NCBI GenBank assembly: GCA_017608505.1 | Contig: JAFCFT010000004.1 | Span: 1 to 61,958, forward strand | Source of the DNA: Candidatus Parvarchaeota archaeon | GTDB lineage: Archaea; Nanobdellota; Nanobdellia; WJKC01 | Reading direction: 5' to 3' | DNA: 61,958 nt | Shown: piece after piece, positions 33,373 through 51,955 of the stretch | How positions within the stretch are numbered: the stretch's first letter is position 1 | Layout of the letters: every line of letters starts with the position of its first letter | Notes under the pieces: model-generated | The model's database searches: none | What the model was told of the DNA's origin: nothing | The model's input: only the letters and a program-made list of their open reading frames with translations | Program-made: the position numbers and the translations under genes

Positions 33373-33384
33373 AACGGATTAGAT

Positions 33385-33420: not shown

Positions 33421-33508
33421 ACCCGTGTAGTCCCAGCCGTAAACGCTGCCCGTTAGGTGTTGCACGTCTCTTGAGGGCGTGCAGTGCCGAAGCGAAGGCA
33501 TTAAACGG

Positions 33509-33542
<34 letters not shown>

Positions 33543-33578
33543 TAAAGGAATTGGCGGGGGAACACAACAAGGGGTGCC

Positions 33579-34374: not shown

Positions 34375-34626
34375 TCGTGCGGTTTAATTGGACCTAACAC
34401 CGTAAATCTCACCAGGGGCGACAGCAGGATGAAGGTCAGTCTGAAGGGCTTACCTAACGCGCTGAGAAGAGGTGCATGGCCGTCGTCAGCTCGTGCTGTG
34501 AAGTGTCCTGTCAAGTCAGGTAACGAGCGAGACCCACGTCTCTAGTTGCTATCATGAGTCTTCGGATTCGTGAGCACACTAGAGAGACTGCCCTCGAAAG
34601 AGGGAGGAAGGCGTGGACCACGGTAG

Positions 34627-35442: not shown

Positions 35443-35457
35443 GTCAGTATGCCCTGA
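34672..35457 (+). CDS. XRE-HTH plus PD-(D/E)xK-like putative homing nuclease (stop codon lies in the exon)
   Basis: GLSQNEL...ISKYELG; TQQE...IVDFY...IIECKK. Confidence 0.7.
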   Translation: MPPTSVTTNKLINDYKELKELTENFTNLQSNVLENKPSYLLVFRLMLGLSQNELEKAIGLNSKNISKYELGKIKKMRKKTAERFLRIIRKKLSNTSKSNLINNAIRMQNESSGWFKANNDTSKALEARRKSAIKTLSKSKTQQENVLETLLIKHNIKYKRNYPIRNNIIVDFYIPEIPLIIECKKLTTAKPQGQRRKIMELAYQAYRIRYLYPKYKIIALIETKLPLRKRDIDELVPFDKIFKSTDSLIMWLLQSTEVSMP

Positions 35458-35877
35458 ATCCCCTGGGCTACACGCGCGAAGCAATGGCCGGGACAATTGG
35501 ACGCTACACCGAAAGGTGACGCAAATCCCCTAAACCCGGTCGCAGTATGAATCGAGGATTGGAACCCATCCTCGTGAAATCGAAATCCCTAGTAATCGCG
35601 TCTCAGAAAGTCGCGATGAACCTGTCCCTGTTCCTTGCACACACTGCCCATCAAACCACTCGAGTTGAGTATGGGTGAGGCATCATCGTCAGATGGTGTC
35701 GAACCTGTGCTCGATGAGAAGGGTTAAGTTGACACAAGGTATCCGTAGGGGAACCTGCGGATGGATCACCTCCTATTATTTTATCTAATAAGAGGTTAGG
35801 ACTCGCCTCACAATTATTAACGCCTGACCCGATTCCTGTTTATTTTTTCTTAATAGTTTTCTTTCTTATCTTCTTTA

Positions 35878-36274
35878 TTATCTTCTGCCTATGCGGAACT
35901 TCTTAATTTTTTTAAGCAATAAGTACTCATCTATAGGTTTTTTAATATAACCCTTAACAGGAGGCTTAATCACTGGTTTCCAACCCATCCTTTCCTGTTT
36001 AGGAGTTAATGCAAAAGTCTCAACAGCAGTCAAGCATATAACCATGGCTTTAGGGCTTTTAATTTTTACTTCTTCAACAATTTCATCAGGCCTTGGACCA
36101 GGCATCATAACATCAAGGAGAAATATGTCTATGTTTTTGTTTAACTTATTAATGCAATCTAAACGTCTGTTGCAGTAATTACATAATATCCAGCATTAAT
36201 AAACCAAATTTTTACTAGCTCGCGAAATCCTTATTGTCGTACACAACTATTACAAGCAACTTTTTCTTTTTCAT
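35878..36274 (-). pseudogene. Receiver-domain (CheY-like) pseudogene
   Basis: IFLLDVMMPG and YIKKP; two frameshifts in the 5' half. Confidence 0.75.
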
Positions 36275-36289
36275 TAATAAAAAATAAGA

Positions 36290-36703
36290 TGCGCAAATTT
36301 ACAATCTTTTTCTGTTTGATTTTTTGAATACTTTCTTGGCAGGTTTAAGTGCGCCATTTACAGTTTTTAATAAATCATCAGGCACAAAGTTTAAGCAACA
36401 CTCTAACTATAAGATTAAGGTATTTTTCTTTTAATTCTTTTTCAACACTAGCTGGGCTTGCAGTTGTAGGAAATACTTTATTTCAATACTTAAGGCATTT
36501 AGTTTGTCTAAAAAGTCTTTGGCCTTGCATTTCGCCGGCCAACTTCAAATCAAGCAAAACAACATCAATATTATCATTCTTAATAAGTACTAATCTTCTT
36601 CAGCACTGTCAACGTATATGTACTCATAACCAGTATTTTTAAAGATGTCTTTGCCTAAAATCCTAATAACTTCATCATCTTCTATGTGCAATATTTTAGT
36701 CAT
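36290..36703 (-). pseudogene. Second receiver-domain pseudogene (3' end approximate)
   Basis: MTKILHIEDD..., then VVLLDLKLAG and PDDLLKTV in shifted frames. Confidence 0.7.
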
Positions 36704-37298
36704 AAATAATCTCCTTTAGCGTTTTTTTAATTATCAATTCTGAGCTCATGCTGTGGATTACTATTGGGACTTCAATAACTTTTAAAAATGCTTCTGTATT
36801 GTCATCTTCTGTTTCGAATAATTCTCTTTTCATGAAAAAATAGTCAAACTGACTTATAAGGCCATAAATAATTCTTATAATAAGATTTTTGCAATAACGC
36901 TCCCAAAACCTAACTCGCTCAACATCATCAGAAAATTGATCATAAAAACTGTGAACAAGCGTATTATCAAAATCTGAGAAAACTAAATCTGGATTGAATT
37001 TTTTAAGACGTTTATAAGCATCTTTTAGATTATGAACATAATAATCGCAGTTATCTACGCCAATTCCTTTGTCTCCATCGCGCAAAATCAAACATTTTTT
37101 GTATTTAAAACCTAATTTTTTTGCTAAAGAGTCTGCAAGTTCCATATCAACTAACCTGTCTCCAAGAAAGAAAACTCTTTTAGGGTTAAGTTTGTGTGTT
37201 TTAAAATATTTAACAAAGGCGTCTGTGCAAGGCTTAAAACCGCCATTAAATGCCATATACCAAGAACCTATTATATGCACTTGCGAAGGCAAAACCAT
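36696..37298 (-). CDS. HAD-superfamily-like protein with permuted motif order
   Basis: KP and GDRLVD precede DFDNTL and HSMS. Confidence 0.65.
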   Translation of the reverse strand: MVLPSQVHIIGSWYMAFNGGFKPCTDAFVKYFKTHKLNPKRVFFLGDRLVDMELADSLAKKLGFKYKKCLILRDGDKGIGVDNCDYYVHNLKDAYKRLKKFNPDLVFSDFDNTLVHSFYDQFSDDVERVRFWERYCKNLIIRIIYGLISQFDYFFMKRELFETEDDNTEAFLKVIEVPIVIHSMSSELIIKKTLKEIIYD

Positions 37299-37346
37299 GA
37301 ATATAATTATTTACCGCAATTTTTTATAATTTTGTATGCGCCAAAA

Positions 37347-37445
37347 AATGGACCGGCCGGGAAGCCAGAGAGGGGGAAGCTTCCCCCTCCCTAAGCCTAC
37401 CCACCCCCTCTAAGTCTTTTTTAGAAAATAATGGACCGGCCGGGA
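37347..37445. repeat. 16-bp duplication of the tRNA-Ala 3' end flanking a 67-bp hairpin element
   Basis: aatggaccggccggga at 37347 and 37430; agggggaa-gc-ttccccct. Confidence 0.85.
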
Positions 37446-37504
37446 CTTGAACCCGGGACCTCCCCGTTGCAAGCGAGGTGATCTACCAACTGATCTACCG
37501 GCCC
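37432..37504 (-). tRNA. tRNA-Ala(TGC)
   Basis: Cloverleaf with G3:U70. Confidence 0.97.
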
Positions 37505-37623
37505 GCGTAGTAAAAATATTATTGAAAGATTTTTAAAGTTTTACTTTAATAAATAACATAATATCATGCTCACCATTCACCGCTGTGGTGAGAGAGGGTT
37601 CTGCAAACCGCGGCGCAGGACCC

Positions 37624-38163
37624 TCATATTATTATTGGTCCTTGTCTTATCACCTTTTTATTAATAGTATCATATATTGTCGAAGGAGGTGTTTCTTTTA
37701 ATTTTCCGACACAAATTTTATAATCAACACCTTTTAAGTCAGGACAATCGTAAGGGTTTGGACCTCCAGAAATATTCGCACTGGTTGCAGTTATTGGCTT
37801 CCCAAAACTACACACTAATTTGCGCGCCACTGGATGAGAACTAATTCTAAAGGCGACCATATCGCCGCAAAGAATGTCTGGAAACACCTTGTTTTTTACT
37901 ATTAATGTAAGCGGTCCTGGCATGTAACGGTCCATTAATTCCTCAGCATGCGGATTTAGGCAAGCATAATCTTTTATCATTTCTTTAGAAGACACAATAA
38001 CAGATATTGACTTGTCAAAGGGCCTTTTCTTTATTTTGTATACTTTACGTATTGCAAAAGGATTTGTCGCGTCAGCACCAAGACCATAACAGGTTTCAGT
38101 AGGATAAATAACAACACCTCCTTGCTTTAATACATCCACTGCTTTTGATATCGAGTATTTCAT
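37624..38163 (-). CDS. sua5: Threonylcarbamoyl-AMP synthase (Sua5/TsaC)
   Basis: PTETCYGL, K.R, PGPLT, TSANISG. Confidence 0.95.
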   Translation of the reverse strand: MKYSISKAVDVLKQGGVVIYPTETCYGLGADATNPFAIRKVYKIKKRPFDKSISVIVSSKEMIKDYACLNPHAEELMDRYMPGPLTLIVKNKVFPDILCGDMVAFRISSHPVARKLVCSFGKPITATSANISGGPNPYDCPDLKGVDYKICVGKLKETPPSTIYDTINKKVIRQGPIII

Positions 38164-38219
38164 ATGTTTTCAATTCATTAACCATTTGTTAATCATTAAT
38201 AAAATTTAGAACAGTAACC

Positions 38220-38227
38220 TTTATAAA
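38220..38227 (+). promoter_or_regulatory. TATA box of the 23S rRNA gene
   Basis: TTTATAAA ahead of a leader complementary to the 23S trailer. Confidence 0.7.
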
Positions 38228-38917
38228 CCAGTCTCTTCTATTTTTGTTTTAGTGGTCGAAATGAGTGCGTAAAATAACACGAAACTTTCTGACAACCCTT
38301 AGAGGTTGTAGACCACGTGTTAAAAAACATATGAGCTCCTTGAGTGAAGGCTCCTGGAGTGATGGCGGATAATATTTATGACGCCGTTGCATAGGCCGGA
38401 ATTAAGTAGTTCACAGGGGACTACTTAGAAACTCTCACTCTTTTGGATGTGAAAGACGCTGTTAGGTGGATGACTTGGCTTGAGTGTCGATGAAGAGCCT
38501 GGCAAGCTGGGATAAGCCCCGGGGAACCGCTATGCAGGTCTCGATCCGGGGATGCTTGAATGGGACTTCCCGCCACTAAGTGATTAGTGGCACTCCGTTA
38601 AGGAGGGAGAACTCGGGGAATCGAAACATCCTAGTACCCGTAGGAAAAGAAACCAATAGGGATGCCGTGAGTAAGGGCGACTGAAAGCGGCACAGGGCAA
38701 ACCGAACCCTGTTAGGCGACTAGCAGGGGATGTGGGGTTTTGGACCTCCTATTGAGCACTCGCAAGCGAATCCAAAGTCCGCTGGAACGCGGCGCCATAG
38801 AGGGTGATAGCCCCTTAGGAGTAAGCAAGCGAGTGTGTGGAGGTATCCAGAGTACTTGGCATTGGAAATTGTCAAGGAATATGGGTGACAACGACATCCA
38901 ACCCTAAATACACCTCA

Positions 38918-38948
<31 letters not shown>

Positions 38949-40190
38949 CGTTGAAAAGAATCCTAAATAGGGAAGTGAAAAGAGCCTGAAACCTAACAGC
39001 CACGGTTGATTGCGGCCTAAAAGAGCTCGCGAGAGAAGAGAAGCTGAGTAATCAGTGGATCTATCACGCGAGTAGTCGAGGTTGCAACATCATTTTGGGA
39101 TAAATGGCCAGGGAGTTTACGTCAGTGGCGAGACAAACGGCGAAAAACCGTGTGTCGCAGCGAAAGCAACAAGCCCGCAGGCAACGAGGGGCGGGGTGTG
39201 AAAGCGCCCGGAGTCACTGGCGTAAGACCCGAAGCCGGTCGATCTAGCCCTGGGCAAGGTGAAGTCCCTCGAAAGAGGGGTGGAGGCCTGAAGCAGTTCT
39301 GTGTACAGGCGTTTGTCTGACCTGGGGCTAGGAGTGAAAAACTAATCGTGATCGGCGATAGCTGGTTCCTCCCGAAGTAGGCTACAGTCTAGCCTCGCCT
39401 GAGATAGTATGAGGGGTAGAGCTACCAATCGGGTGTTTAGGGTTCGAAAGAGCTCGGCATCCGGTTGAACTCCGAATCCTCATACATCGTAGACGGCGGG
39501 AGTCGGGGGCTCGGGTTAAGCTCGGGTTCCGAGAGAGGAACAACTCAGACAGGGGTTAAGGCCCTTAAATCCTGACTAAGTGAGGAAAGGCATTCATGCC
39601 CTAAAACAATGGGGAGGTAGGCTTAGAAGTAGCCATCCTATAATGAGTGTGTAACAACTCACCCATCTAGGGCATGGGTCCTGAAAATGGACGGGACTAA
39701 GTCAGGTGCCGATACCCCTGGCCCCAAGACGAAAGTCTTGGTGACGCGGTAGGGAGGCGTCCTGCGTGCGTAGAAGCAAGGCCGTGAGGTCTTGTGGAGC
39801 GCGTCGGATTGAGAATCCTGGCAGTAGTAGCATCTGAGAAGGGTGAGAACCCCTTCCGGCGAAAGGGCAAGGGTTCCTCAGCTCTGCATGGTCAACTGAG
39901 GGTTAGTCGGTCCTAAGGGTTACCTTAATCGGGAAGCCCGAAAGGGAAACGGGTTTATATTCCCGTACCACTCCTGTACGTGCGGCGACGCAAGGCAGGT
40001 GGTCGTGACGCTTCCGGGTAGGCTCTGCAAAGCTATCGCTTTGTCTAAAAGGGATAGGCCTGGGGAGTAACGTAATGTTGAGAACCAGGTTAAACCTTGA
40101 ATGGACTGCCGCAAGGCGGTTAGAGCCGATCCCTGGAGCCCGTGAAAAACGAGCCTGCAAGGATCAGGAGTGACCGTACCCAGAACCGGC

Positions 40191-41096
40191 AGGATGTCAC
40201 CGGAGGGTTTATATACTTATGCGTACTTAGAACCAACACGTGAAATTTGATATAACAAGATTAGACTACGAAAAGGACAAAGATTACAGAGAATTAATAA
40301 GAGTTGACGGACACACTTTCAGGGATTTATTTGTGAATAAAAGCACTAAAGAATGGAGTACATTACTAGGTGTGTCTAAAAAACAGATTAGACTATGGAA
40401 ATCAGGAAAAATAAGGATTCCATTAAGAGTTTTGTTAAAGTTAGGAAAGAAAAATAGAATAGTAGGAAATGTTAAAAAATTATATCTATACAGTGGGAAA
40501 TCAGTGATTATCCCAGAAGGCCTGAACGAATTGCTATGTGAATTTGTAGGAAGGCACTGTGGTGATGGTTCAATAACAATAAAAAACAATGACTATAGGA
40601 TTGTATTAACAGAGAGTCCAGAGTTCCTGAAAATGCATGCAAAAGACATTGAAAATCTATTTGGAATAAAACCAAAGATTAGAATAATTAGCAAAAAGTA
40701 TGGACGAGTGATTTTCAGTTCGAAAATAATTGTAAGATTCTTAGAACAGTTTTTTGATATTAAGCATGGACCTAAAACACATACAATAACCGAACCAAAG
40801 ATTATCAGAAATTCAAAGATTAATCACCGAATTGCTTTTGTTAAAGGCCTAATCAATACTGAAGGAAGCGTATATAAATCCAATAGAGCATATTATTTTG
40901 AAATTAAACTAGTGAATAAAAATTTATTAAATTCTGTAAAGGAAATATTTGATTTATTAAGAATAAAGTATTATTATATGATTAAAGGAAATTACTACAC
41001 AATCAGAGTCCTCGGTTTGAAAGAGATTGATAAAATTAATAGATTAATAGGATTTAATAACCCACGTATAAAAATCCCTCCGATGCGTCCCGGTAA
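40191..41096 (+). mobile_element. 23S intron (about 1615), 906 nt
   Basis: ACCG/CGGT helix, GC|A and AA|A bulges; removal restores AACCGGCACAGGTG. Confidence 0.92.
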
Positions 41097-41151
41097 ACAG
41101 GTGCCCCTAGCTGAGAAGGCTAAGCCGTGTAGGGAGAACCATGGTCAGTGA
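40240..41151 (+). CDS. Double-motif LAGLIDADG endonuclease with N-terminal HTH-like segment
   Basis: EFVGRHCGDGS, FVKGLINTEGS; ORF runs into the downstream exon. Confidence 0.88.
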   Translation: MKFDITRLDYEKDKDYRELIRVDGHTFRDLFVNKSTKEWSTLLGVSKKQIRLWKSGKIRIPLRVLLKLGKKNRIVGNVKKLYLYSGKSVIIPEGLNELLCEFVGRHCGDGSITIKNNDYRIVLTESPEFLKMHAKDIENLFGIKPKIRIISKKYGRVIFSSKIIVRFLEQFFDIKHGPKTHTITEPKIIRNSKINHRIAFVKGLINTEGSVYKSNRAYYFEIKLVNKNLLNSVKEIFDLLRIKYYYMIKGNYYTIRVLGLKEIDKINRLIGFNNPRIKIPPMRPGKQVPLAEKAKPCRENHGQ

Positions 41152-41160
41152 AATCGGCAA

Positions 41161-41197
41161 ATGACGCAGAGATGTTGTAACTTCTGTGTCAGCCGAG
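41161..41197 (+). other. 23S mini-intron (about 1677), 37 nt
   Basis: CGGC/GCCG helix; removal restores CGGCAAATTGGCCCCG. Confidence 0.92.
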
Positions 41198-42216
41198 ATT
41201 GGCCCCGTAACTTCGGGAGAAGGGGTCTCAGCGGTCGTGCTCTTAAGGGTGCGATTGCTGGGGTCACTGACTAGGGGGGTCCGACTGTTTAATAAAAACA
41301 TAACTGGCTGCAAAACCGAAAGGTTTAGTATAGCCGGTGACGCCTGCCCAGTGCGAGTATCCGAAACCTGGGTTCAACCGGGCCAAGGACTCGTAAACGG
41401 CGGGCCTAACCTTGAGGCTCTTAAGGTAGCGTGATGCCTTGCCATTTAAATGATGGCGTGTCTGAGTGGCGTAACGAGATCCCCACTGTACCGACCATGG
41501 ACCCTGTGAACATATCGTCCTGGTGTAGAGACCAGGGACCCCCAGTGGGTTGATAAGACCCTTGGATCTTTACTGCAGCCTGACGCTGCTCTATGGGGTG
41601 TGTTGTATAGGGTAGTCGGGAGACGTAGAAGCGATGACGTCAGTTGTCGTGGAGTCAACGATGTAACACCGACCTTCACATCTTGTAGGGCTAACCCGAA
41701 AGGGGACACCGTTTGGTGGGCAGTTTGGCTGGGGCGGCACGCCGGCGAAAAGATATCACCGGCGCCCAAAGGTCAGCTCAGGGAGGTCAGAACTCTCCCG
41801 TTGAGTGCAAGAGCAAAAGCTGGCCTGACTGGAATCCGCAATGCGAGGATTCCAGGGGCGAAAGCCTGGTCTAGCGAACCGCTGTGTGCCTCTCGTTGAG
41901 GCCCAGTGACGACAGAGAAGTTACCCAAGGGATAATGGAGCTGTCTCGCCCGAGAGTCCATATTGACGGCGAGGCTTGCTACGTCGATGTCGGCTCTTCC
42001 TATCCTGGCCGTGCAGCAGCGGCCAAGGGTGCGGGTGTTCACCGATTAAAAGGGATCGTGAGCTGGGTTTAGAACGCGGTGACGCAGTTCGGCTTATAAC
42101 TACTGGGGGTGCGCAGTGCCTGAGCGGAAGGTCCTCTTAGTACGAAAGGAACGGAGGGTCGGCGCCTCTAGTCTACCAGTTGTCCGACAGGGCAGGCTGG
42201 GCAGCCACGCGCTAGT

Positions 42217-42249
<33 letters not shown>

Positions 42250-42433
42250 ATCCGCGAAAAGAGGCACTGATAGGGCTGTCATAGAAGATGACGTTGATAG
42301 GAACGGGGTGTAAGCACCGAGGCAACGAGGTGTTCAGCCCGCGTTCACTAATCGCCCTGACACATCACAAAATAAGTGAGGGTTTAAGTCCCCTGTTTTC
42401 CGGCCTTGCAACGGTTGTTCATTTTTTATAATC

Positions 42434-43057
42434 ATGAAGTTTTTTGCGTTCGTAGATTTGCACGGAAACAGAATGGTCTTAGAACAAGCTATGTTAAACG
42501 CAATTAATAATGAATGCAAATTCATAATATGCGCAGGCGACTTGACTAACTTTGGAGCTGGATTAAGCGAAATGATGAGTGCGCTTTCAAAATCAAAAAT
42601 CCCTGTGTTTATTATACCTGGCAATCACGAGACAAATGAAGAAATAGATAAAGAGTGCAAAAAATACAAATTTGTGAATTTGCATGCGCAGGCAGTAAGC
42701 TACAGAGGGTTAACGCTTGCAGGCATAGGAGGAAGCAACATAACGCCATTTAACACTCCAAATGAACACACTGAAGATGAAATAAAAGAAGTGCTTGAAA
42801 AATTCAAAGGCAGAGAAAATTTATTGCTAGTAAGCCATGCTCCTCCGTACGGCTATCTTGATGAAGTGGGATATGGACAACACGCAGGAAGCAAAGCATT
42901 GCTTGAGTTCATAAAGGCTGAGCAACCTTTGATGGTTATTTGCGGACACATACATGAGCACGCTGGCAAAGAGACAATAATAGGAAATACTAAAGTAATC
43001 AATCCTGGCAAAGGAAGCATTATTTCTTTGCAAAATTTTTTAAAAAATCTTCAATAG
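42434..43057 (+). CDS. Metallophosphoesterase
   Basis: DLHG, GDLT, GNHE, HAPP, GHIHE. Confidence 0.94.
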   Translation: MKFFAFVDLHGNRMVLEQAMLNAINNECKFIICAGDLTNFGAGLSEMMSALSKSKIPVFIIPGNHETNEEIDKECKKYKFVNLHAQAVSYRGLTLAGIGGSNITPFNTPNEHTEDEIKEVLEKFKGRENLLLVSHAPPYGYLDEVGYGQHAGSKALLEFIKAEQPLMVICGHIHEHAGKETIIGNTKVINPGKGSIISLQNFLKNLQ

Positions 43058-43364
43058 CATCCGGAACATACAAGCCAAGACGTTTTGCTTTCATAATTAT
43101 ATAATCTTTTAAAGATGCTTCCATAAACCTGATTTTTTCAATCATTTCTTCGTTATTACTATACATGTCACAAACATCCCTATACAGATCTCTAAAAGCA
43201 AATCCTGCATTAAATGCGTATCTAATAAGCCCTCCACCTCTAGTGCCAATAACTGCAAAATCTACTTTTTGATATAATTTGTTAAGAACTCTATTATATT
43301 CATTTTCGTCATTTAAAAAAGCATCCAGGTCCTTAACACATAAGTATAAACTGTAAGATTTCAT
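43020..43364 (-). CDS. Hypothetical protein
   Basis: 114-aa ORF. Confidence 0.55.
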   Translation of the reverse strand: MKSYSLYLCVKDLDAFLNDENEYNRVLNKLYQKVDFAVIGTRGGGLIRYAFNAGFAFRDLYRDVCDMYSNNEEMIEKIRFMEASLKDYIIMKAKRLGLYVPDAIEDFLKNFAKK

Positions 43365-43390
43365 AATTCAAGAAAAAAGAATATCGCATA

Positions 43391-43957
43391 TTAAATTAAT
43401 TGTTTTTTAATATATATTACAAGCTGAATTATTGCAGTAGCAGAAAGAGCCACGTATGCTGTAAATAACATTGGAATTGCGCTAGGCAAAAAGGGAAGTA
43501 TTAACATCATAACTACAGTGTATATCAAGCGTTCTGCTCTGTCAAATATAGAGTGTTTTGCGCATGCTCCAAGGCACTCTGCTCTGTGCTTCACATAAGA
43601 AATCATAATAGAAAAGCCCACAGCAAATAATGCAATTGTCTGCATGCCAGAGCTTACAGCAATGAATGCTATAAACAAAGTTTCAACAATTTTGTCGCTT
43701 ACAGAATCTAAGAATGCGCCAAACTTAGATACTTTCTTAGTCTCGCGTGCAAGAGCTCCATCAAATAAATCAATAAGAAAAGACAAAGAGAACAAAGCAA
43801 CGCCAAGCCAGTAATTTATAAAAGATATAAAGAAGGCTACAAAACCTAAACACAAGCCAGCAATTGTCAAATGATTCGGATGAAGCCCTGCCTTTGCTAA
43901 AAGATCCACTAAAGGAGCCATAAAATTATTCACTTCTTTTTTCTTTTTTGCAAGCAT
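43391..43957 (-). CDS. CDP-alcohol phosphatidyltransferase
   Basis: PNHLT, D..DGALAR...GAFLDSVSD. Confidence 0.94.
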   Translation of the reverse strand: MLAKKKKEVNNFMAPLVDLLAKAGLHPNHLTIAGLCLGFVAFFISFINYWLGVALFSLSFLIDLFDGALARETKKVSKFGAFLDSVSDKIVETLFIAFIAVSSGMQTIALFAVGFSIMISYVKHRAECLGACAKHSIFDRAERLIYTVVMMLILPFLPSAIPMLFTAYVALSATAIIQLVIYIKKQLI

Positions 43958-44448
43958 TACCAAGGCACCTTCTTAAGACCAAGATAATATGCGATGATGT
44001 TCGAAGCCCTATGAATTAAAATTGTAGCACCAAACATCACAACAACAGATAAAAAATCCATTGAAATGTAAAATGACAAGTAAATATAAGACGCTATCAT
44101 AAAATCCAGTTGATCTGCCAAAAACCATCGCTCGCCCTGCTTTATGCCAAGCCTGCGTTTTATGAATGAGTGAATAACATCGCCAAGCAGTGCAAATAAA
44201 ATGGATGCGAGACTAATAGAAAGCATAAGACCTGGCCACAAATAAAAAATAATTGCAGAGGCGAGACTCCCAAGTGAAAAGCCTATAAGCAACCCTTCAA
44301 TAGTTTTTCCGTTTCCAAGCAACCTGTGTTTGCCAAGTTTTAATCCAAAGTCAAGAGGATGTCTTTTTTTAATTAATGCTGCAAGAGTGCATGAAGCATT
44401 AGCCACATAAAGAGGTATTGTATACATTATAAGTGGAAGAATATTCAT
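43957..44448 (-). CDS. carS: CDP-archaeol synthase (DUF46)
   Basis: YVAN, PLDFG, GNGKT.EG, GD...SFIKRR, DQLDF, KKVPW. Confidence 0.92.
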   Translation of the reverse strand: MNILPLIMYTIPLYVANASCTLAALIKKRHPLDFGLKLGKHRLLGNGKTIEGLLIGFSLGSLASAIIFYLWPGLMLSISLASILFALLGDVIHSFIKRRLGIKQGERWFLADQLDFMIASYIYLSFYISMDFLSVVVMFGATILIHRASNIIAYYLGLKKVPW

Positions 44449-44523
44449 GAAGGAAACTAACAGTTTCTCACTTAAAAGATTTTTTCAAAATAATTAAAAA
44501 AGATAAAAAGTTTAAAAGCAAAT

Positions 44524-44730
44524 ATGAAGAAGTCAAAAATTAAAACAAACTTGCTGACATTCTTGATAATATTTGCTGTTGCATTTGTGTCAAGCGTGCT
44601 TACGCAGGTTTTAATGAACGTGTGGATTGACTGGATAACTTCTGCAATCATTAGTCTGGGAATAACTGCTGCGTTAATCATTTTTGACGTACTAAATATT
44701 ACTAAAAAGTTTAAGAAAAAGAAAAAATAA
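44524..44730 (+). CDS. Small two-TM membrane protein
   Basis: Two hydrophobic helices with basic termini. Confidence 0.6.
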   Translation: MKKSKIKTNLLTFLIIFAVAFVSSVLTQVLMNVWIDWITSAIISLGITAALIIFDVLNITKKFKKKKK

Positions 44731-44762
44731 GTTTATAAATGCGTTTATTTATTATTCTTTTT

Positions 44763-45084
44763 AGTGATTGGGTGAGTGGTTTCACGCTTCGAAAAGCGAA
44801 GTGAGGAAGTCCGTTCACTGCTCATTAACGGTTCGACTCCGTTAACTTGCGACCCGCAAGGGTAATGCTTGGAAGGGCTTTGCAGCTTGAACAGCGACGA
44901 TGACCGCATCGAGACGCAAACCAATGATTAATGATGAGGGTTTCGGTGCGGTGTGAAACGGCTTGCTGCACGCAAGAGCAGTGCAAGTCAAAAGGACGCT
45001 TAGTAGAATAACCACAAAGCCTTCGATGAGGAAGCGCATCGCTTCTTTAGGGCTTAACAAAAAACGGGCTATCACCCAATCACT
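44763..45084 (+). ncRNA. rnpB: RNase P RNA
   Basis: P1 AGTGATTGGGTGA/TCACCCAATCACT, GAGGAAGTCCG, AACAAAAAACGGGCT; TATA at 44732. Confidence 0.95.
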
Positions 45085-45089
45085 GCCTT

Positions 45090-45260
45090 TTACTTTAAGA
45101 ATCCAATTCTTTCCATGGTGAACCAAAAGCTAAAACCAAGAATTATTAATCCAAAAGATACTGTTTCATTAATGCTTAATGGAAACACTGGACTTAACAT
45201 AATTCTAAATCCAATGAAAATGCCAAGAATGTCCCTTATTGCGCCTCTAAAACCCATCAT
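45090..45260 (-). CDS. Small 56-aa membrane protein (not in ORF track)
   Basis: MMGFRGAIRDILGIFIG...WFTMERIGFLK*. Confidence 0.6.
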   Translation of the reverse strand: MMGFRGAIRDILGIFIGFRIMLSPVFPLSINETVSFGLIILGFSFWFTMERIGFLK

Positions 45261-45296
45261 AAAGATTTATAAAAGCAAATTTAATAATCTTTTTCC

Positions 45297-45455
45297 ATGG
45301 CAAAAAAGATGACAATGCTTCCTCAAAGCACTGGAGGAATAATGCGCTACTTTAGCGACTACAAGAGCAAAATCCTAATTAAGCCAGGATATGTCATATT
45401 TGCTGCAATAATAACAATCATAGGGATTCTAATTCTTCACGCCACGCTTCCATAG
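45297..45455 (+). CDS. secG: Preprotein translocase Sec61beta (not in ORF track)
   Basis: LPQSTGGIMRYF...IKP followed by a TM helix. Confidence 0.9.
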   Translation: MAKKMTMLPQSTGGIMRYFSDYKSKILIKPGYVIFAAIITIIGILILHATLP

Positions 45456-45754
45456 CGGCTTAGAAGCATGATTAAAAGTATTATCACAACTACTAGGCCT
45501 GCGCTGATAAAGATAAGATATGCCCAGTATTCTCTTACAAAATCCATTACACGGGTTTTAAAATTGTATTCTGGCACTTTTAGTTCTTGTTTTTGTGGCG
45601 CGCCTGCAAGCTCTTCTTTTGGAAGTGCTGTCATTAATTGCGCATAAAAGTCAGGATATTTTTCTTGATAAAGCTTCATTGTCTCAGCATATTTTGCAGG
45701 GTTTTTGCGTTTAAGCTCGAGCAACCGTGAAACATACTCTTGAATATCTGGCAT
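45437..45754 (-). CDS. C-terminally anchored hypothetical protein
   Basis: 105-aa ORF with a C-terminal TM helix. Confidence 0.65.
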   Translation of the reverse strand: MPDIQEYVSRLLELKRKNPAKYAETMKLYQEKYPDFYAQLMTALPKEELAGAPQKQELKVPEYNFKTRVMDFVREYWAYLIFISAGLVVVIILLIMLLSRYGSVA

Positions 45755-45792
45755 AAAATAATATAAGGTGCAAACATATTTAATAGTTTATT

Positions 45793-46518
45793 ATGCTTAA
45801 TAAAAGAGAATTAGAAAGATATAACAGCCAGATAATTTTTAAAAAGTTTGGAAAAGAAAGCCAAGAAAAATTAAAAAAAGCAAAAGCGCTTCTTGTTGGT
45901 GTTGGAGGCCTGGGGTCTGTAATATCAACACTTCTTGTGAGGGCAGGCATAGGAGAATTAAAAATTGTTGACAGGGATGTTGTTGAATTAAGCAATCTTC
46001 AAAGACAGATACTGTATGATGAAACAGACATTGGAAAATCAAAAGCAAAGCTTGCAAAAGAAAAATTAAGAAAAGTTAATAAAAATGTAAAAATAAAGGC
46101 TTTTAAAGATGAAATAACAAAAGACAATGTATTAAAATACGCGAGAAATGTTGACATAATTCTTGACGGCACAGACAATATGAAAGCGCGCTTTGCGCTG
46201 AATCATGCAAGCGTCAAATTAAAAATTCCGTTTGTGCACGCAGGATGCGAAGGATTTAGCGGGGTTTGCGCTGTGTTTGTTCCAAAAAAAGCTTGTTTTG
46301 CCTGCCTTTACAAAGAATGTGAAGTAAAAAAGCCGATAAGTGTTCTTGGGCCAACGCCTGTGCTAGCAGGCAGCATGTCTTCTGGCTACGCGATTCAGAT
46401 GCTGTCCAGCACAATGAAATTAAAGACTTCATTCATGACTGTGTTTTCGCTTATTGACAATGAATTTGACACATACATTATTAAAAAAGATACAAAATGC
46501 GCTGAGTGTGGAAAATGA
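45793..46518 (+). CDS. ThiF/MoeB E1-like enzyme (UbaA-like)
   Basis: GVGGLG, SNLQRQ, DGTDN, CFAC, CAEC. Confidence 0.93.
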   Translation: MLNKRELERYNSQIIFKKFGKESQEKLKKAKALLVGVGGLGSVISTLLVRAGIGELKIVDRDVVELSNLQRQILYDETDIGKSKAKLAKEKLRKVNKNVKIKAFKDEITKDNVLKYARNVDIILDGTDNMKARFALNHASVKLKIPFVHAGCEGFSGVCAVFVPKKACFACLYKECEVKKPISVLGPTPVLAGSMSSGYAIQMLSSTMKLKTSFMTVFSLIDNEFDTYIIKKDTKCAECGK

Positions 46519-46730
46519 AAGTAATATTAAAAACATACGTGCCAAAAGAAAAAGAAATTGAAATTAAAGTAAAAGCAAATGCAAAATTAAAAGACGTTAT
46601 TAAAAACGTAAAAATGAAATCGCCTGACGACTATATTATTCTAGTTAATAGCATAAGTGTGAAAAATCTAGAGAAAAGACTAAAAGAAAATTCAAAAATA
46701 GTGATACTTCCAAGGTTGCTGGGTGGGTAA
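46515..46730 (+). CDS. SAMP/MoaD/ThiS ubiquitin-like protein
   Basis: About 70 aa, ILVN, C-terminal P..GG. Confidence 0.88.
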   Translation: MKVILKTYVPKEKEIEIKVKANAKLKDVIKNVKMKSPDDYIILVNSISVKNLEKRLKENSKIVILPRLLGG

Positions 46731-48045
46731 TGTGCTAAAAATCTTATCGCCTCAAAGCATTGCAGTAATAGGTGCTTCAAGAAATCCAAAAAAGGTTGGG
46801 CACGTAGTATTTAAGAATCTAAAAGAGTCAAAAATAAAGACATATCCAGTAAATCCAAACGCAAAAAGGCTGCTTGGTGTTAAATGCTATCAAAGCATAA
46901 CAGAATTAAAAGACAAAGTTCAAGTTGCAATTATTGCAATACCTGCAAAATTTGTTCCTAAAGTTATTGAAGAATGCGGTGCTTGCGGAGTAAAAGAAGT
47001 CATAATAATAAGTGCTGGATTTAAAGAAGCAGGCAATGAAAAACTTGAGCAAGAACTAAAAAACAAGGCTAAAAAGTTTGGCATTAAAATGCTTGGGCCA
47101 AATGTCTTAGGAGTAATTAAGCCAGGAGAATTTAACGCATCTTTTTTTAAAGAAAAATTGATAAAAGGAGGCATTAGTTTCATAAGCCAGTCAGGAGCGC
47201 TTGGCGTCGCAGTCCTTGACTGGGCTACTAGCAAAAACATAGGTTTCAGATACTTTATAAGCGTAGGAAATATGGCAGATATTAATTTTAGCGAATTAAT
47301 AGAAGAGCTAAGCAATGATCCTGAAACAAAAGTTATAGCATTGTATGTTGAGTCTCTAAATGATGGCAAAGCATTTATGGAAGCTGTTAAAAATGCAGGC
47401 AAGCCAGTCTTGGTATTAAAAGCTGGCAAAAGCGAAGAAGGAGGAAGAGCTGCAAGCAGCCATACAGGCTCATTAGCAGGAGGCTATAAGATCTACGAGG
47501 CTGCATTTAAGCAATGCGGTGCTATTAGCGTCTCATCCTTTAATGAGTTAATAAAGACTGCTGAACTAATTAATAGATTTGGAAAAATTAAGAAAAAAGT
47601 CTTAATAATAAGCAATGCTGGAGGGCCTGGCATCTTAATAACTGATGCGTGCGTTAAGAACGAACTAAAAATCCCGAGACTTCCTTTGCGCGTAAAGAAA
47701 AAACTTGACAAAGAGCTTCCAAAAGCATGGAGCCGTAACAATCCAATAGATGTGTTAGGCGATGCATTGGCTGAAAGATACAAGAAAGTCTTTAATGTCA
47801 TTGAAAAAGATGACTTTTATGACTGCGTGATTGTACTTTTAACACCGCAAGCAATGACTGAAGTTAAAAAGACAGCCAAAGCAGTGATTGAATTCTCAAG
47901 ACGCACTAAGAAGCCTGTAATCCCTTGCTTTTTAGGAGGTAAAAAAGTAAAAGAAGCATTTGAATTGTTCAAGAAAGCAGGTATTTTTGCTTTTGACGAA
48001 ATCGATGAAGTTGCTGAAGCTCTTGGCAAAGCAGTCAAAGCCTAA
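46723..48045 (+). CDS. acdA: ADP-forming acyl-CoA synthetase alpha subunit
   Basis: AVIGAS, GPN.LG, SQSGALG, SHTGSLAG, NPID.LGDA. Confidence 0.93.
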   Translation: MGNVLKILSPQSIAVIGASRNPKKVGHVVFKNLKESKIKTYPVNPNAKRLLGVKCYQSITELKDKVQVAIIAIPAKFVPKVIEECGACGVKEVIIISAGFKEAGNEKLEQELKNKAKKFGIKMLGPNVLGVIKPGEFNASFFKEKLIKGGISFISQSGALGVAVLDWATSKNIGFRYFISVGNMADINFSELIEELSNDPETKVIALYVESLNDGKAFMEAVKNAGKPVLVLKAGKSEEGGRAASSHTGSLAGGYKIYEAAFKQCGAISVSSFNELIKTAELINRFGKIKKKVLIISNAGGPGILITDACVKNELKIPRLPLRVKKKLDKELPKAWSRNNPIDVLGDALAERYKKVFNVIEKDDFYDCVIVLLTPQAMTEVKKTAKAVIEFSRRTKKPVIPCFLGGKKVKEAFELFKKAGIFAFDEIDEVAEALGKAVKA

Positions 48046-48664
48046 CTCGCGCATCAATCACTAAAGCTTTGTTGCCTTTCATAGTTAGCGGGTTAATATC
48101 CATTTCTTTTATGTCTTTTTGCACAGCAATTTTTGAAATTTTGCTGATAAGTTCAGAAAGCTTATCAATATTAACGCCCTTAACGCCCCTGTAACCTTGC
48201 AACAGCTTGCCGGCTTTAAGTTCGCAAATCATAGACTTTGCTTCTTTTTTATTGACTGGACAGACGCGAAATGAAACGTCTCGAAGAAGTTCTACAAAGA
48301 TGCCTCCAATGCCGAACATTAAGACCTGACTAAATACTGGGTCTTTTTTAATGCCTATTATTAATTCAATGCCTGAAAATTGCTCCTGAATTAAAATGCC
48401 TTTTAAAGGCAATTTTAGATGCTGAGCAGAAAGCAGGAGTTCATCATACGCTCGTCTAGCTCTTATTTCATCATAAATTCCTGTAACTACTCCGCCCACA
48501 TCAGTTTTGTGAATTGCTTTAGAGCTAACTAACTTCATAACTACAGGGTACCCAATTGTTTTGGAAGCAAAAACAGCTTCGTGCCTGCTGGTAGCAAGAT
48601 AGGACTTTGCAACTGGCAAGCCTTGTTTTTTTAAAAACTTAAGACTCTCAAATACGTCAAGCAT
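48035..48664 (-). CDS. acdB: ADP-forming acyl-CoA synthetase beta subunit
   Basis: GYPVVMK, HKTDVGGV, FG.GGIFVE, EMDINP. Confidence 0.93.
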   Translation of the reverse strand: MLDVFESLKFLKKQGLPVAKSYLATSRHEAVFASKTIGYPVVMKLVSSKAIHKTDVGGVVTGIYDEIRARRAYDELLLSAQHLKLPLKGILIQEQFSGIELIIGIKKDPVFSQVLMFGIGGIFVELLRDVSFRVCPVNKKEAKSMICELKAGKLLQGYRGVKGVNIDKLSELISKISKIAVQKDIKEMDINPLTMKGNKALVIDARVRL

Positions 48665-48721
48665 TGTTTAAATAATAAAAACTTGGTTTTTAATTAATTA
48701 TCGAAAAAAGTTCTTTTGTTA

Positions 48722-49486
48722 TTAAACTGACTCGCTTTTTTCAAAGAAATATGCTCCAAGGAATACCATGATGCTAGAAAAGCCAACTAGTATTGCGAAA
48801 TTTAAAAGAACCGGAAACGAGGATACGCCAATCAACACGCCTCTCAAACCATCTACACCATATGTTAATGGGTCGAGATACGAAATGTATCGTATCCAGA
48901 CAGGCAAGTTCTCTAATGGATATAAAGCGCCAGATAAGAAAAAAAGAGGGAATATTACAAAATTAGTTATCATACCAAAACCTTGAATATCCTTCATTTT
49001 TGAGGCAAATATTAGACCTAAACCAATAAAGGTAGACGATATAAGCAACATAAAAACAATAGATGAAAAGAATGCAGGTATGCTAACTATCTTAAAACCC
49101 ATTAAAATAGAAATGCCTAATATTAAAATGCCTTGAAATATTGAAGTCGTTGCTCCTCCAATTATTCTTCCAATTACTATTGAAACCCTGTTGACAGGCG
49201 CAACCATAATTTCTTTTAAAAATCCAAACTCCTTATCCCATAAAACAGACATTCCTGCAAACATCGAAGTAAAAAGCATAGTCATGCCAACAATACCTGG
49301 AACTAAAAAATGAATATATTCTACATCTTTTGCCATACTTGGTATATTTATATTGCCTAAACCCATGCCTAAAAAGGCTAAGAAAAAAATTGGCATTGCC
49401 AGAGTCCCAATAACTCTAGATTTTGCTCTTACGAATCTCTTCATTTCTCTAAGCCATAAAACATATATTGCAATAGCATTAATCAT
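48722..49486 (-). CDS. ABC-2 exporter permease
   Basis: DKEFGFLKEIMVAP, FLSGALYP, PLTYGVD. Confidence 0.93.
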   Translation of the reverse strand: MINAIAIYVLWLREMKRFVRAKSRVIGTLAMPIFFLAFLGMGLGNINIPSMAKDVEYIHFLVPGIVGMTMLFTSMFAGMSVLWDKEFGFLKEIMVAPVNRVSIVIGRIIGGATTSIFQGILILGISILMGFKIVSIPAFFSSIVFMLLISSTFIGLGLIFASKMKDIQGFGMITNFVIFPLFFLSGALYPLENLPVWIRYISYLDPLTYGVDGLRGVLIGVSSFPVLLNFAILVGFSSIMVFLGAYFFEKSESV

Positions 49487-50475
49487 CTTCTAAACCTCCT
49501 TTTTGCAAACTCCATAAATTTTTCTTTCTGGCTGGCTTCCTTTTCCCTGATGGTTTTTCCAGTAAAATGTAAAAATACATTTTCTAAACTTGGTTTATGC
49601 AGAGTCGCAGATATGATGCCAACACCTTTTTTCTGGGCAATACTAATTATTTCTGGCAGTCTTTTTTCGCCTTTTTTTACCATTAATGTTAACTTACTGT
49701 CGTGCTTTTTAAAAGAGTTCACAAATTTTAGTTTGTTAATTGCATTCATGAATTTATCGGCATTTCCCTCCAGTTCGAGGATTATAATATCCCCTCCAAG
49801 CTTATCTTTTAATCTATTTGGAGTGTCCATTGCAATAATCTTGCCATGATCAATTATACCTATCCTATCACAAAGATAATCAGCTTCTTCCATATAATGA
49901 GTAGTTAAAATAATTGTAATCTTGTTTTCTTTGTTTAGTTTTCTAATATAGTCCCAAATATGCCTTCTTGTTTGGGCATCCAAACCAAGAGTAGGCTCAT
50001 CCAAAAATAAAACTTTTGGTCTATGAATGAAGCCTCTGGCAATTTCTAATCTTCTTTTCATGCCACCAGAATAATTTCCTACCAATACATTTGCTTTATC
50101 GCTCAATCCAACAAGTTCTAAAACCTCTTTTATCCTTCTATTTCTTTCTTTTTTATTCATTCCATACAACATCGCATGGAATTCTAGATTTTCCTTTCCA
50201 GTTAATCTATTGTCCAAAGCAGGCTCTTGGAAAACTATCCCAATGCTTCTTCTTACTTTTTCTCTTTCTTTTATTATATCATAACCAGACACCTTCGCAT
50301 GGCCAGAAGAAGGATTAAGCAGTGTAGAAAGCATATTTATTGTCGTGGTTTTGCCAGCGCCATTCGGCCCTAATAAGCCAAAAAGTTCTCCTTTTTTTAC
50401 CTTAAAACTTATATTGTCTACTGCTGTAAAACCATTAAACATTTTTGTTAAATTTTTGACTTCTATTGCTACCAC
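49483..50475 (-). CDS. ABC exporter ATPase (DrrA-like)
   Basis: GPNGAGKT, YSGGM, LDEPT. Confidence 0.96.
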   Translation of the reverse strand: MVAIEVKNLTKMFNGFTAVDNISFKVKKGELFGLLGPNGAGKTTTINMLSTLLNPSSGHAKVSGYDIIKEREKVRRSIGIVFQEPALDNRLTGKENLEFHAMLYGMNKKERNRRIKEVLELVGLSDKANVLVGNYSGGMKRRLEIARGFIHRPKVLFLDEPTLGLDAQTRRHIWDYIRKLNKENKITIILTTHYMEEADYLCDRIGIIDHGKIIAMDTPNRLKDKLGGDIIILELEGNADKFMNAINKLKFVNSFKKHDSKLTLMVKKGEKRLPEIISIAQKKGVGIISATLHKPSLENVFLHFTGKTIREKEASQKEKFMEFAKRRFRR

Positions 50476-50476
50476 G

Positions 50477-50971
50477 TTAATCAGCCTCGTTTAGTTCAGA
50501 AAGACATTTTTCAAGTATCTTTTTAATTTTTTCTTTATTTTTATTAGATTTTTTATAAACAACATCTCTTATTTCAAAAAGAACTTTTTCAATTTCTGAT
50601 TTATCTTTACCCAAAATATCTATGAATAAACCTTTAAATAATAGAAATTTTTTCCTGGAATCTTCCTTAAATTTTTGTATCTGTTTTAACGTGTTAATGC
50701 CATTATTTGTAAGTTCAAATATGTGTTTTGAACGTTTATCAACCTTGCTTATTTTTATTAGTCCCTCTTGTTCAAGTTGCTTTAAAAGAGGGTATAAGGT
50801 TCCTTTGCTAGGCACCCATTTCCCACAGGTTTTCTCTTCAATTTCTTTTAATAATTCATAGCCAGATTTTGGTTTACTATTTAAAGAGTGTAAAATATAG
50901 AGCACAAGAATACCTCTTTCTTTTCCATCATTACAGTGAAATTTCCATAGGCCCATCATTAAATGGAGCAA
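50477..50971 (-). CDS. PadR-family regulator (start uncertain)
   Basis: SGYEL, PSKGTLYPLL..LE.EGLI. Confidence 0.9.
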   Translation of the reverse strand: MLHLMMGLWKFHCNDGKERGILVLYILHSLNSKPKSGYELLKEIEEKTCGKWVPSKGTLYPLLKQLEQEGLIKISKVDKRSKHIFELTNNGINTLKQIQKFKEDSRKKFLLFKGLFIDILGKDKSEIEKVLFEIRDVVYKKSNKNKEKIKKILEKCLSELNEAD

Positions 50972-51102
50972 TAAGAATAGGTTATTTAAATATATTTCGG
51001 TTTCGAACGGTTTGGATTCGTAATATAATAAAATTCTCTTTAAGTCAACACAAAACTTCGTAACCCTTATAAACTCATTTTTTTATTTATAAATTTAAAG
51101 GC

Positions 51103-51339
51103 GGACCCGTAGCCTAGCCAGGATAGGGCGACAGCCTCCTAATAGCGATGATGATTGACGACGAATCTCCAAAAAAAATGGAGTGACTGACCTACTCTGA
51201 GCATAGGGGAGAGCTGTAGATCGGGGGTTCAAAACCTAGGCGAAGGGGGACTTTCCCTCCCCCTTCTCCTAAGGCTCACCAACTTCCCCCTCCCTCGAAG
51301 AGGGGGCAGAGCTTAAGGTTGGAAATCCCTCCGGGTCCG
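51103..51339 (+). tRNA. tRNA-Arg(CCT) with introns at 37/38 (51142-51211) and 59/60 (51234-51325)
   Basis: Exons rebuild a cloverleaf; CTCC/GGGG and TTCA/TGGA central helices. Confidence 0.9.
51142..51211 (+). ncRNA. Intronic box C/D guide RNA
   Basis: GC-G-ATGATGA (51148) ... CTGA-GC (51197) K-turn geometry; guides complementary to 16S h34. Confidence 0.8.
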
Positions 51340-51382
51340 CTACTCCGCTTTCTTTATTAATAACAAAGTAGTAAAATTATGT

Positions 51383-51874
51383 ATGACAAGAATCAGCAAA
51401 TTATTGCAACCAAGAATGGTGCTCTTAATAACATCGTACGCAGACAATACACATGACGTTGCAACTTTTAGCTTTGTAACACCAATAAGCTTTAATCCGC
51501 CGTTGCTAGCATTTAGCGTTGCGCATACAAGATACACAAAAGAATTAATAGAAAAGAATCCTGAATGCGTTGTTAATGTTGCGACAACAGAAATGCTTGA
51601 TGACGCATTATACTGCGGCACAAGAAGCGGAAGAGATGTTGACAAGTTTGAAAAAATAGAATGGGAAGAATGCGAAACAGTAAAGCCAAGAAGAGTTAAA
51701 AAAAGCCCAGTCCAGCTGGAATGCAAAGTATTAAAAATAATACCTGCAGGAGATCATAACATAGTGTTGTGCGAAGTGTTGACAGAGCATGTAAAGACTC
51801 TTGAATACAAGCCGTTAATGCATGTGTCAGGAAGCGACTTTGCAACATCCACTAAAATTGGGCCCGTGGCGTAG
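51383..51874 (+). CDS. Flavin reductase (DIM6/NTAB) family protein
   Basis: SFNPP, CGTRSGRDVDKF, LECK, GDH. Confidence 0.92.
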   Translation: MTRISKLLQPRMVLLITSYADNTHDVATFSFVTPISFNPPLLAFSVAHTRYTKELIEKNPECVVNVATTEMLDDALYCGTRSGRDVDKFEKIEWEECETVKPRRVKKSPVQLECKVLKIIPAGDHNIVLCEVLTEHVKTLEYKPLMHVSGSDFATSTKIGPVA

Positions 51875-51949
51875 CCTGGACAGCGCGGCTATGTTTCAAC
51901 CGTAAGGCTTCGGACCAGCAGATCGGGGGTTCGAATCCCTCCGGGCCCA
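51860..51949 (+). tRNA. tRNA-Arg(TCG) with a 15-nt intron at 29/30 (51891-51905)
   Basis: GCGG/CCGT helix, CT|A and AA|G bulges; spliced arm GCTGG-CTTCGGA-CCAGC. Confidence 0.9.
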
Positions 51950-51955
51950 CACAAT

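Follow-up and report, generated by a model that had tools for sequence, protein, structure and literature searches.

The closest described counterparts of the element studied here, a putative C/D box guide RNA within an intron of a tRNA-Arg(CCT) gene, are given as set out in the reports cited. The element lies in a 61,958-nucleotide (nt) stretch of DNA from a Candidatus Parvarchaeota archaeon (contig JAFCFT010000004.1 of assembly GCA_017608505.1), which we refer to at its full length as the window. In Euryarchaeota (Haloferax volcanii, and Pyrococcus as sR50), the tRNA-Trp intron contains a C/D guide that methylates its own host tRNA at C34 and U39 (PMC7994747, PMC11408192). The 66-nt tRNA-Met intron of Nanoarchaeum equitans forms a stable C/D-like RNA whose box C is mutated and which is presented as a potential guide, no target being named (Randau 2012, PMC3491384). 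Eukaryotic U25, snR56, and AtsnoR19 guide 2'-O-methylation of a G (Gm) in helix 34, at Gm1490 in human and Gm1428 in yeast (PMC2794176, PMC3511168). Finally, the 16S rRNA genes of Thermoproteales contain bulge-helix-bulge (BHB) introns at loci listed from 374 through 1205 and 1213 to 1391, of which 1205 and 1213 are on the same helix strand (PMC4496867). Methylation is mentioned nowhere in that report (0 occurrences).

At the locus analyzed here, we consider it likely that the intron at position 37/38 of tRNA-Arg(CCT) is an old C/D guide for helix 34 of 16S rRNA, that a mobile intron later landed at the target of this guide, and that methylation takes place after the rRNA is spliced. The window corresponds to contig C15 in an archaeal genome of 0.92 Mb (G000; 22 contigs, 86% complete), and the genomes of its relatives range from 0.5 to 1.3 Mb. 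Comparisons drew on 41 genomes for BLAST of the locus, 151 genomes of the class for a covariance model, and 401 genomes of the class for motif and open reading frame (ORF) searches. The intron-less, 1528-nt 16S of a genome from the same genus (G001) served as the alignment reference.

Conservation and covariation of the guide and its 16S target

The D guide of the tRNA intron pairs with a 16S sequence that exists only once an 816-nt rRNA intron has been removed. With GGTAG|GTCAGT of spliced 16S, where the bar marks the splice junction, the guide forms 10 Watson-Crick (WC) pairs and one G-U pair over 11 nt, and C51192 lies opposite G34626, with which the 5' exon ends. The duplex energy is −18.3 kcal/mol at the spliced junction, compared with −8.3 kcal/mol at the unspliced boundary of 5' exon and intron and −8.5 kcal/mol at that of intron and 3' exon. 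A sequence-only reading of the window had claimed both this dependence on intron removal and G34626 as the target by the N+5 rule, and pairing on spliced 16S bears out the two claims. By the E. coli numbering of helix 34, the target G would be about G1197 and the paired region about 1194-1203. The features discussed below are as follows, all on the + strand.

51104-51341, +: tRNA-Arg(CCT) gene with two intervening sequences, recognized by eye and from orthologs with the same exons
51142-51211, +: 70-nt BHB intron at 37/38, predicted to be a small RNA (sRNA) of the C/D box type; BHB by eye, conserved in 17 of 151 genomes
51148-51154, +: box C, ATGATGA, matching RUGAUGA, with a TGA.GA core that is conserved in the alignment
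51155-51166, +: D' guide region, TTGACGACGAAT, whose pairing with 34481-34489 is at chance level
51167-51183, +: CTCC-loop-GGAG hairpin standing where a proper D'/C' pair would be, with CTCC at the D' position (sequence and fold)
51185-51196, +: D guide, GACTGACCTACT, with C51192 as position 5 (sequence, pairing, and covariation)
51197-51200, +: box D, CTGA (sequence)
51234-51325, +: second intervening sequence, in the T-loop, a GC-rich repeated element of ~92 nt with ends ambiguous by up to three A's
31385-35774, +: 16S rRNA gene, 4390 nt, with four intervening sequences and five exons (Rfam and alignment to the G001 16S)
34481-34489, +: possible D' target in the 5' strand of helix 34, a weak match (P about 0.32) from pairing
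34622-34626, +: 5' half of the D-guide target, GGTAG, with G34626 as the N+5 nucleotide and last 5'-exon base (alignment and pairing)
34627-35442, +: 816-nt BHB intron in helix 34, the fourth and last in the 16S gene (alignment and BHB)
34660-35457, +: intron ORF of 265 amino acids with helix-turn-helix (HTH) and DUF559-like (PD-(D/E)XK-type) regions, a putative homing endonuclease (Pfam, below cut-off)
35443-35448, +: 3' half of the D-guide target, GTCAGT, with which the 3' exon begins (alignment and pairing)

Changes in the guide follow changes in 16S across relatives. Covariation was assessed in the 13 genomes that offered both guide and 16S; G007, G041, G059, G067, and G075, from which no 16S was recovered, were left out. 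The register of the pairing was constant throughout, and all ten pairs at guide positions 2-11 were WC in 11 of the 13 genomes. Ten genomes combine 16S GGTAG with a guide ending in ..CTAC, G015 and G023 combine GATAG with ..CTAT, and G018 combines GACAG with ..CTGT. At two positions, ~1194-1195, guide and 16S have thus changed in a compensating manner. Judged by this covariation, the match between guide and junction is well beyond chance. For random 12-mers, 57 out of 3000 (0.019) gave at least 10 WC pairs covering the N+5 nucleotide anywhere in the spliced 16S and 23S.

The guide is also conserved across a broad set of tRNA introns. BLAST of the locus found the intron in 8 of 41 genomes, and a covariance model (R1) built from these introns matched in 24 of 151. 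Read individually, 17 of the 24 matches were introns of tRNA-Arg(CCT) with boxes C and D and a D guide of the C[T/A]GACCT type, and they fall in seven families (f1, f2, f3, f5, f7, f13, and f16) of a small-genome, Nanoarchaeia-type class. Conservation of boxes and guide in orthologous tRNA-Arg introns, on which the sequence-only reading had staked its proposal beforehand, was found in these 17 genomes. The remaining matches were a tRNA-Thr(CGT) intron with the related D guide AACTGACCAGCA (G041, L047 1501-1594), two tRNA-Arg(TCT) introns with other guides (G020 L050, G057 L051), two C/D-like sequences with other guides (G027 L055, G136 L054), and two sequences without C/D boxes (G017, G044). 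Unrelated guides are also found in some tRNA-Arg(CCT) introns (e.g., G016 L013), and the clade may generally use its tRNA introns to host guides. In a separate observation, the tRNA-Arg(CCT) intron of G026 (L052/L018) has a tandem duplication of ~50 nt of its 5' part.

Motif searches gave a similar picture. The exact motif ACTGACCTRYNCTGA occurred in 12 of 401 class genomes, always at the tRNA-Arg(CCT) intron, and a reversed control motif gave three hits. A stricter pattern found 15 stretches in a collection of 185,579 species; 11 were in archaeal records, titled Nanoarchaeia, Nanoarchaeota, Parvarchaeota, Woesearchaeota, or Haiyanarchaeum, and the other four were bacterial and without tRNA context, a number close to chance expectation. 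Within the genus, box C, all 11 guide bases, and box D are identical in G000 and G001, while the loop and tails of the intron differ. Together, the alignments and covariation identify this intron as what we regard as a real, conserved C/D box sRNA with a target in 16S helix 34.

The anatomy of the intron fits this identification. Box C and box D were read where the sequence-only reading had put them, at 51148 and 51197. The box C core is kept in all eight aligned orthologs, with variants including ATGAAGA and ATGATTA, and box D reads CTGA, CCGA, CAGA, or ATGA in 13 orthologs. The guide core, ACTGACCTAC, occupies 51186-51195 and is followed by T51196. The tRNA-Arg(CCT) gene that hosts the intron was undetected by both ARAGORN and Rfam. 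It has acceptor stem GGACCCG/CGGGTCC, anticodon stem ACAGC/GCTGT, and anticodon CCT at 51138-51140. The BHB of its 37/38 intron is canonical, with a central helix of 4 bp (CTCC 51136-39 and GGGG 51206-09) and two bulges of 3 nt (TAA 51140-42 and AGA 51210-12), cut after the second bulge base. In contigs of two other public data sets, the same locus lacks one A of the A-run in the intron loop (window 51171) and otherwise shows zero to two differences.

The D' guide showed a much less consistent pattern. In G000, TTGACGACG pairs with CGTCGTCAG in the 5' strand of helix 34 through 8 WC pairs and one G-U pair. The pairing that the sequence-only reading had noted for this second guide is thus present, but it is at chance level, equaled by 948 out of 3000 random guides (0.32), and the D' box beside it is CTCC. 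At the same helix strand, the G001 guide forms just 7 bp (by reading), and the D' guide of G015 forms 8 WC and 3 G-U pairs with a compensating change, which keeps alive the idea of a helix 34 D' target for the family. The D' guide of G018 fits better to the 5' end of 16S. In family f3, the D' guide GAAGAAGGTCAA forms 10 WC pairs with 23S TGACCTTCTT in both genomes tested (G038 L105, G024 L106), and the f3 RNA would be a dual guide for 16S and 23S. These comparisons point to a D' guide that evolves and a D guide that is fixed.

The 16S intron at the guide target

The rRNA intron that splits the D-guide target is well delimited. The break at 34626|35443 was placed by alignment to the G001 16S, and the BHB fixes its position to the base. 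The central helix is formed by CGGT 34621-24 and ACCG 35437-40, with bulges AGA 34625-27 and AAG 35441-43; the inner helix has 14 bp (34628-41 with 35423-36), and the outer, exon-exon helix is weak. The sequence-only reading had counted this intron as the fifth in the gene, and alignment to G001 gives four, of which it is the last. Contigs of four runs over 33300-51400 had a depth of ~3-5 for this organism, with rRNA bins dominated by other organisms, and the 34626/35443 joint was absent among the joints listed.

The relatives examined have no intron at this site. The 16S was recovered from 14 relatives, in 12 of them at full length (1468-1528 nt) and in two as partial sequences that cover the site (G005, G049). 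In all 14, including G001, the gene is uninterrupted at GGTAGGTCAGT or variants of it. Since the guide is shared with relatives whose 16S is uninterrupted at the site, the guide is older than the intron, and the 816-nt intron would be a recent arrival in the G000 lineage. This agrees with a caveat of the sequence-only reading, that the match could predate the intron. We note that G000 is the sole genome with the junction intron in our comparison, so the comparison is one of presence and absence only.

The intron ORF suggests how the intron may have arrived. Its Pfam matches, to HTH_3 and DUF559, are both weak and under the curated cut-offs. A paralog with 29% identity occupies the third 16S intron (33648-34328); both ORFs have an XRE-type HTH and a DUF559-like region, with Pfam scores under the cut-offs, instead of LAGLIDADG motifs. 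The ORF and its paralog fit a predicted element that homes at the DNA level, and the ORFs of the last two 16S introns possibly represent a different class of archaeal rRNA-intron homing endonuclease. Matches to the ORF occurred in 7 of 401 class genomes including G000, and none of the four loci checked, out of homologs in six other genomes, adjoins rRNA.

Proposed order of events and alternative explanations

The genes required for the processing and function that we propose are encoded in G000. EndA would excise the intron from pre-tRNA at its canonical BHB, and RtcB would probably circularize it; both splicing enzyme genes are present. The resulting RNA, which we expect to be stable, would assemble with L7Ae, Nop5, and fibrillarin, the proteins of the C/D ribonucleoprotein. 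Genes were found for fibrillarin (PF01269, 273 bits), L7Ae (PF01248, 85 bits), and Nop5 (PF01798, 166 bits), the last as an intact ORF of 230 amino acids directly upstream of the fibrillarin gene. The D guide would then pair with the decoding-site helix 34, on its 3' strand, and direct 2'-O-methylation of the G at ~1197. In G000 alone, the mobile intron with its endonuclease-like ORF would later have inserted exactly 3' of the target G.

This placement has consequences for the order of events in G000. By established chemistry, EndA cleavage draws on the 2'-OH carried by the base on the 5' side of the cut, and the hydroxyl that fibrillarin methylates is the 2'-OH at N+5. With N+5 falling on the base that ends the 5' exon, one hydroxyl would serve both cleavage and methylation. 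Because the guide duplex forms only on spliced 16S, methylation would have to follow rRNA splicing, and with the target split, it could not precede splicing and hence could not block it by modifying the 2'-OH that EndA needs. G000 may serve as a natural experiment on this order of events, with splicing first and guide-directed methylation after it.

The overlap of intron and target most likely reflects a preference for invariant rRNA that homing endonucleases and guides share, with no designed coupling. Given this preference, and given that the 1205 and 1213 loci lie on the same strand, an intron within some guide duplex is unsurprising. If we assume ~30 guide targets, ~4550 nt of rRNA, and five introns, it is likely enough (about 0.3) that some intron falls inside some guide duplex. 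Under the same assumptions, and before allowing for the shared preference for conserved sites, an intron exactly after an N+5 base would have a probability of about 0.03.

Several observations count against this interpretation of the intron. The 16S of G009, the most contaminated bin (6%), and of G026 has a C at ~1201, so that one internal position of the guide is mismatched in 2 of the 13 genomes. The internal boxes of the genus are degenerate and form a plain hairpin, with D' CTCC and a C' that reads GGAGTGA in G000 and GGAGTAA in G001; the G000 copy would be a single-sided guide at best. Orthologs in other families have proper internal boxes (D' CTGA or CCGA, C' ATGATGA-like), so that both are present in the family taken as a whole. 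The sequence-only reading described a GC stem closing the boxes, and GC pairs are indeed present beside boxes C and D, but there are just two (G51145-C51202 and C51146-G51201), with G51147 left unpaired and the BHB inner helix following. The minimum free energy fold of the free linear intron is without a terminal stem; a circular intron would keep the ends together. No Rfam family matched the intron at the gathering threshold. The best sub-threshold C/D hits span exactly the intron stretch (snoR21 at 23.1 bits and sR1 at 14.6 bits, each against 45), and to our knowledge most archaeal C/D families are absent from Rfam, so this miss is weak evidence. An insertion derived from a repeat interrupts the T-loop of the host tRNA, and transcription and processing of the gene are presumed here. 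Lastly, the D guide also matches 34430-34441 in the 16S of G000 itself (AGGTCAGTC), with 9 WC pairs, −16.4 kcal/mol, and G34434 as the N+5 nucleotide.

Alternative explanations differ in what they make of the split target. The sequence-only reading had proposed that the guide is coupled to the rRNA intron, such that the guide freed by tRNA splicing methylates the ligated junction and possibly prevents re-cleavage or reinsertion; in the version weighed here, the guide would have been selected for marking that junction. Such coupling would account for the position of N+5 right at the end of the 5' exon, on the nucleotide that supplies the 2'-OH for attack in EndA cleavage; both RNAs would be processed by one EndA and one RtcB, and the guide is intact in the intron-bearing genome. 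However, the same guide occurs in seven families whose 16S is without the intron, even within the genus, and the idea that the guide is aimed at the junction and ties the two splicing events together is not supported by that distribution. Ligation leaves no BHB to cut, so a block to re-cleavage would be without basis. Nothing supports a block to reinsertion; we know of no reinsertion of BHB introns at the RNA level, and the intron ORF points to homing at the DNA level. We consider coupling of this kind highly unlikely. Co-option after the target was split is a related idea, in which the guide would have become either a splint for RtcB, holding five bases of the 5' exon and six of the 3' exon, or a quality mark given to correctly ligated 16S alone. 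The splint is suggested by the weakness of the exon-exon helix of the 16S BHB, and if true, either role would tie the release of a tRNA intron to the splicing of rRNA in an organism whose genome is reduced, but we regard this as a very long shot.

The guide could also be a decaying relic in G000, where an sRNA whose target has been split no longer methylates 16S. The degenerate D'/C' boxes of the genus and the second insertion in the host tRNA could be read this way, and loss does occur, as the tRNA-Arg(CCT) intron of G003, from the same family, has no C/D boxes. We think this unlikely, as box C, box D, and the 11 guide bases match those of the same-genus ortholog while flanking parts of the intron have diverged, and splicing restores a perfect target. 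The degenerate D'/C' boxes are common to G001, which has no 16S intron, so they were not caused by it. Action of the D guide elsewhere, on the variable loop and T-stem of the host tRNA (GTAGATCGG), in the manner of the tRNA-Trp intron, or on 16S 34430-34441, appears exceedingly improbable. The tRNA of G001 (GTAGGTCGG) could pair through 8 WC and one G-U pair (by reading), and the 34430-41 site offers 9 WC pairs and −16.4 kcal/mol. On the other hand, the guide changes in G015, G023, and G018 follow 16S, the corresponding tRNA sequences there being GTTTGTCGG, GTAGACCGG, and GTCTTTCGG, and the tRNA of G000 itself is mismatched beside the would-be target. In the relatives whose 16S was scanned, the 34430 site did not rank with the best matches of the D guide. 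We rejected the host tRNA as a D-guide target, given that its variable-loop site does not follow the guide changes. An old guide for helix 34, with a mobile intron arriving later at its target, is the explanation that we carry forward.

Genome context and comparison with described systems

Other features of the genome bear on RNA processing more generally. ARAGORN with intron search found only 28 tRNA genes in G000, with several amino acids missing; many tRNAs probably escape the search through multiple or non-canonical introns. A tRNA-SeC(TCA) call by this program at window 51860-51950 reads, by eye, as a tRNA-Arg(TCG) whose positions 29 and 30 are separated by an intron of 15 nt; together with the tRNA-Arg(CCT) at 51104-51341, this places two intron-bearing tRNA-Arg genes ~500 nt apart. 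A tRNA-Ala(TGC) on the opposite strand separates the 16S gene from the 23S gene (window 37432-37504). Compared with the 23S of the same genus, the 23S gene has one intervening sequence of ~905 nt (window 40191-41096) and, further on, ~35 extra bases. The RtcB match at G000:C3:27088-29889 is split (profile positions 1-50 and 49-426) by ~1.4 kb within one open frame of 985 amino acids, which suggests an intein in the gene for this RNA ligase.

The T-loop insertion in tRNA-Arg(CCT) belongs to a repeated GC-rich element of ~60-90 nt. It is missing from the G001 ortholog, and two further copies in the genome (G000:C6:35369-35417 and G000:C2:32197-32243) have direct repeats on either side, of 26 and 24 nt (by eye). 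The element may be a small mobile element that would have to be spliced as a relaxed BHB intron.

A strict scan of G000 for C/D RNAs returned one candidate, a free-standing RNA with all four boxes on the minus strand (G000:C5:47217-47277). Its D guide forms 11 WC pairs with 23S (window ~39102), and its D' guide forms 9 WC pairs and one G-U pair with 16S (~35712). A loose scan with 1729 candidates was uninformative, with 76 guides matching rRNA compared with 54 on a reversed decoy. For annotation, we note that the tRNA-Arg(CCT) gene escaped the standard tools, and that the target of its guide is invisible unless rRNA introns are removed first.

The literature searched, in its accessible text, contained no C/D RNA in a tRNA-Arg intron, no tRNA-intron guide to rRNA, and no guide across an rRNA splice junction; supplements (e.g., those giving Pyrobaculum intron and methylation sites) may bear on novelty. 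Judged from sequence, the tRNA-Arg(CCT) intron would add a third type to the guide RNAs housed in tRNA introns, and the first with good support whose conserved target is rRNA rather than the host tRNA. It resembles the tRNA-Trp system in having a C/D guide within a 37/38 BHB intron, which tRNA splicing would free, and a putative terminal stem taken from the intron helix. It differs in its host, tRNA-Arg(CCT), in its occurrence in a DPANN-type class, and in a conserved guide that would target 16S rRNA in trans. With the tRNA-Met intron of N. equitans, it shares a small-genome archaeal host and a tRNA-intron RNA with C/D features, here known from sequence alone; the host tRNA is different, and the two systems are set side by side by description and not by sequence.

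The rRNA intron resembles those of Thermoproteales in being a long BHB intron with an endonuclease ORF at a highly conserved 16S site. Its locus, 1197, is absent from the list of loci in PMC4496867, and its ORF appears to combine HTH and DUF559 regions and not to be of the LAGLIDADG type.

Eukaryotic U25, snR56, and AtsnoR19 offer a parallel, as intron-hosted C/D guides for a G that lies close to the A site, in helix 34 of small-subunit rRNA. Their host genes, protein-coding or non-coding, carry them in spliceosomal introns, and the tRNA-Arg intron matched none of these families in Rfam; the eukaryotic Gm may be the same G or the adjacent one. The covariation of guide and 16S would permit a confident prediction of methylation in helix 34 of the decoding site in these uncultured organisms. 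The arrangement mirrors that of eukaryotic intron-encoded small nucleolar RNAs, in a lineage with strongly reduced genomes.

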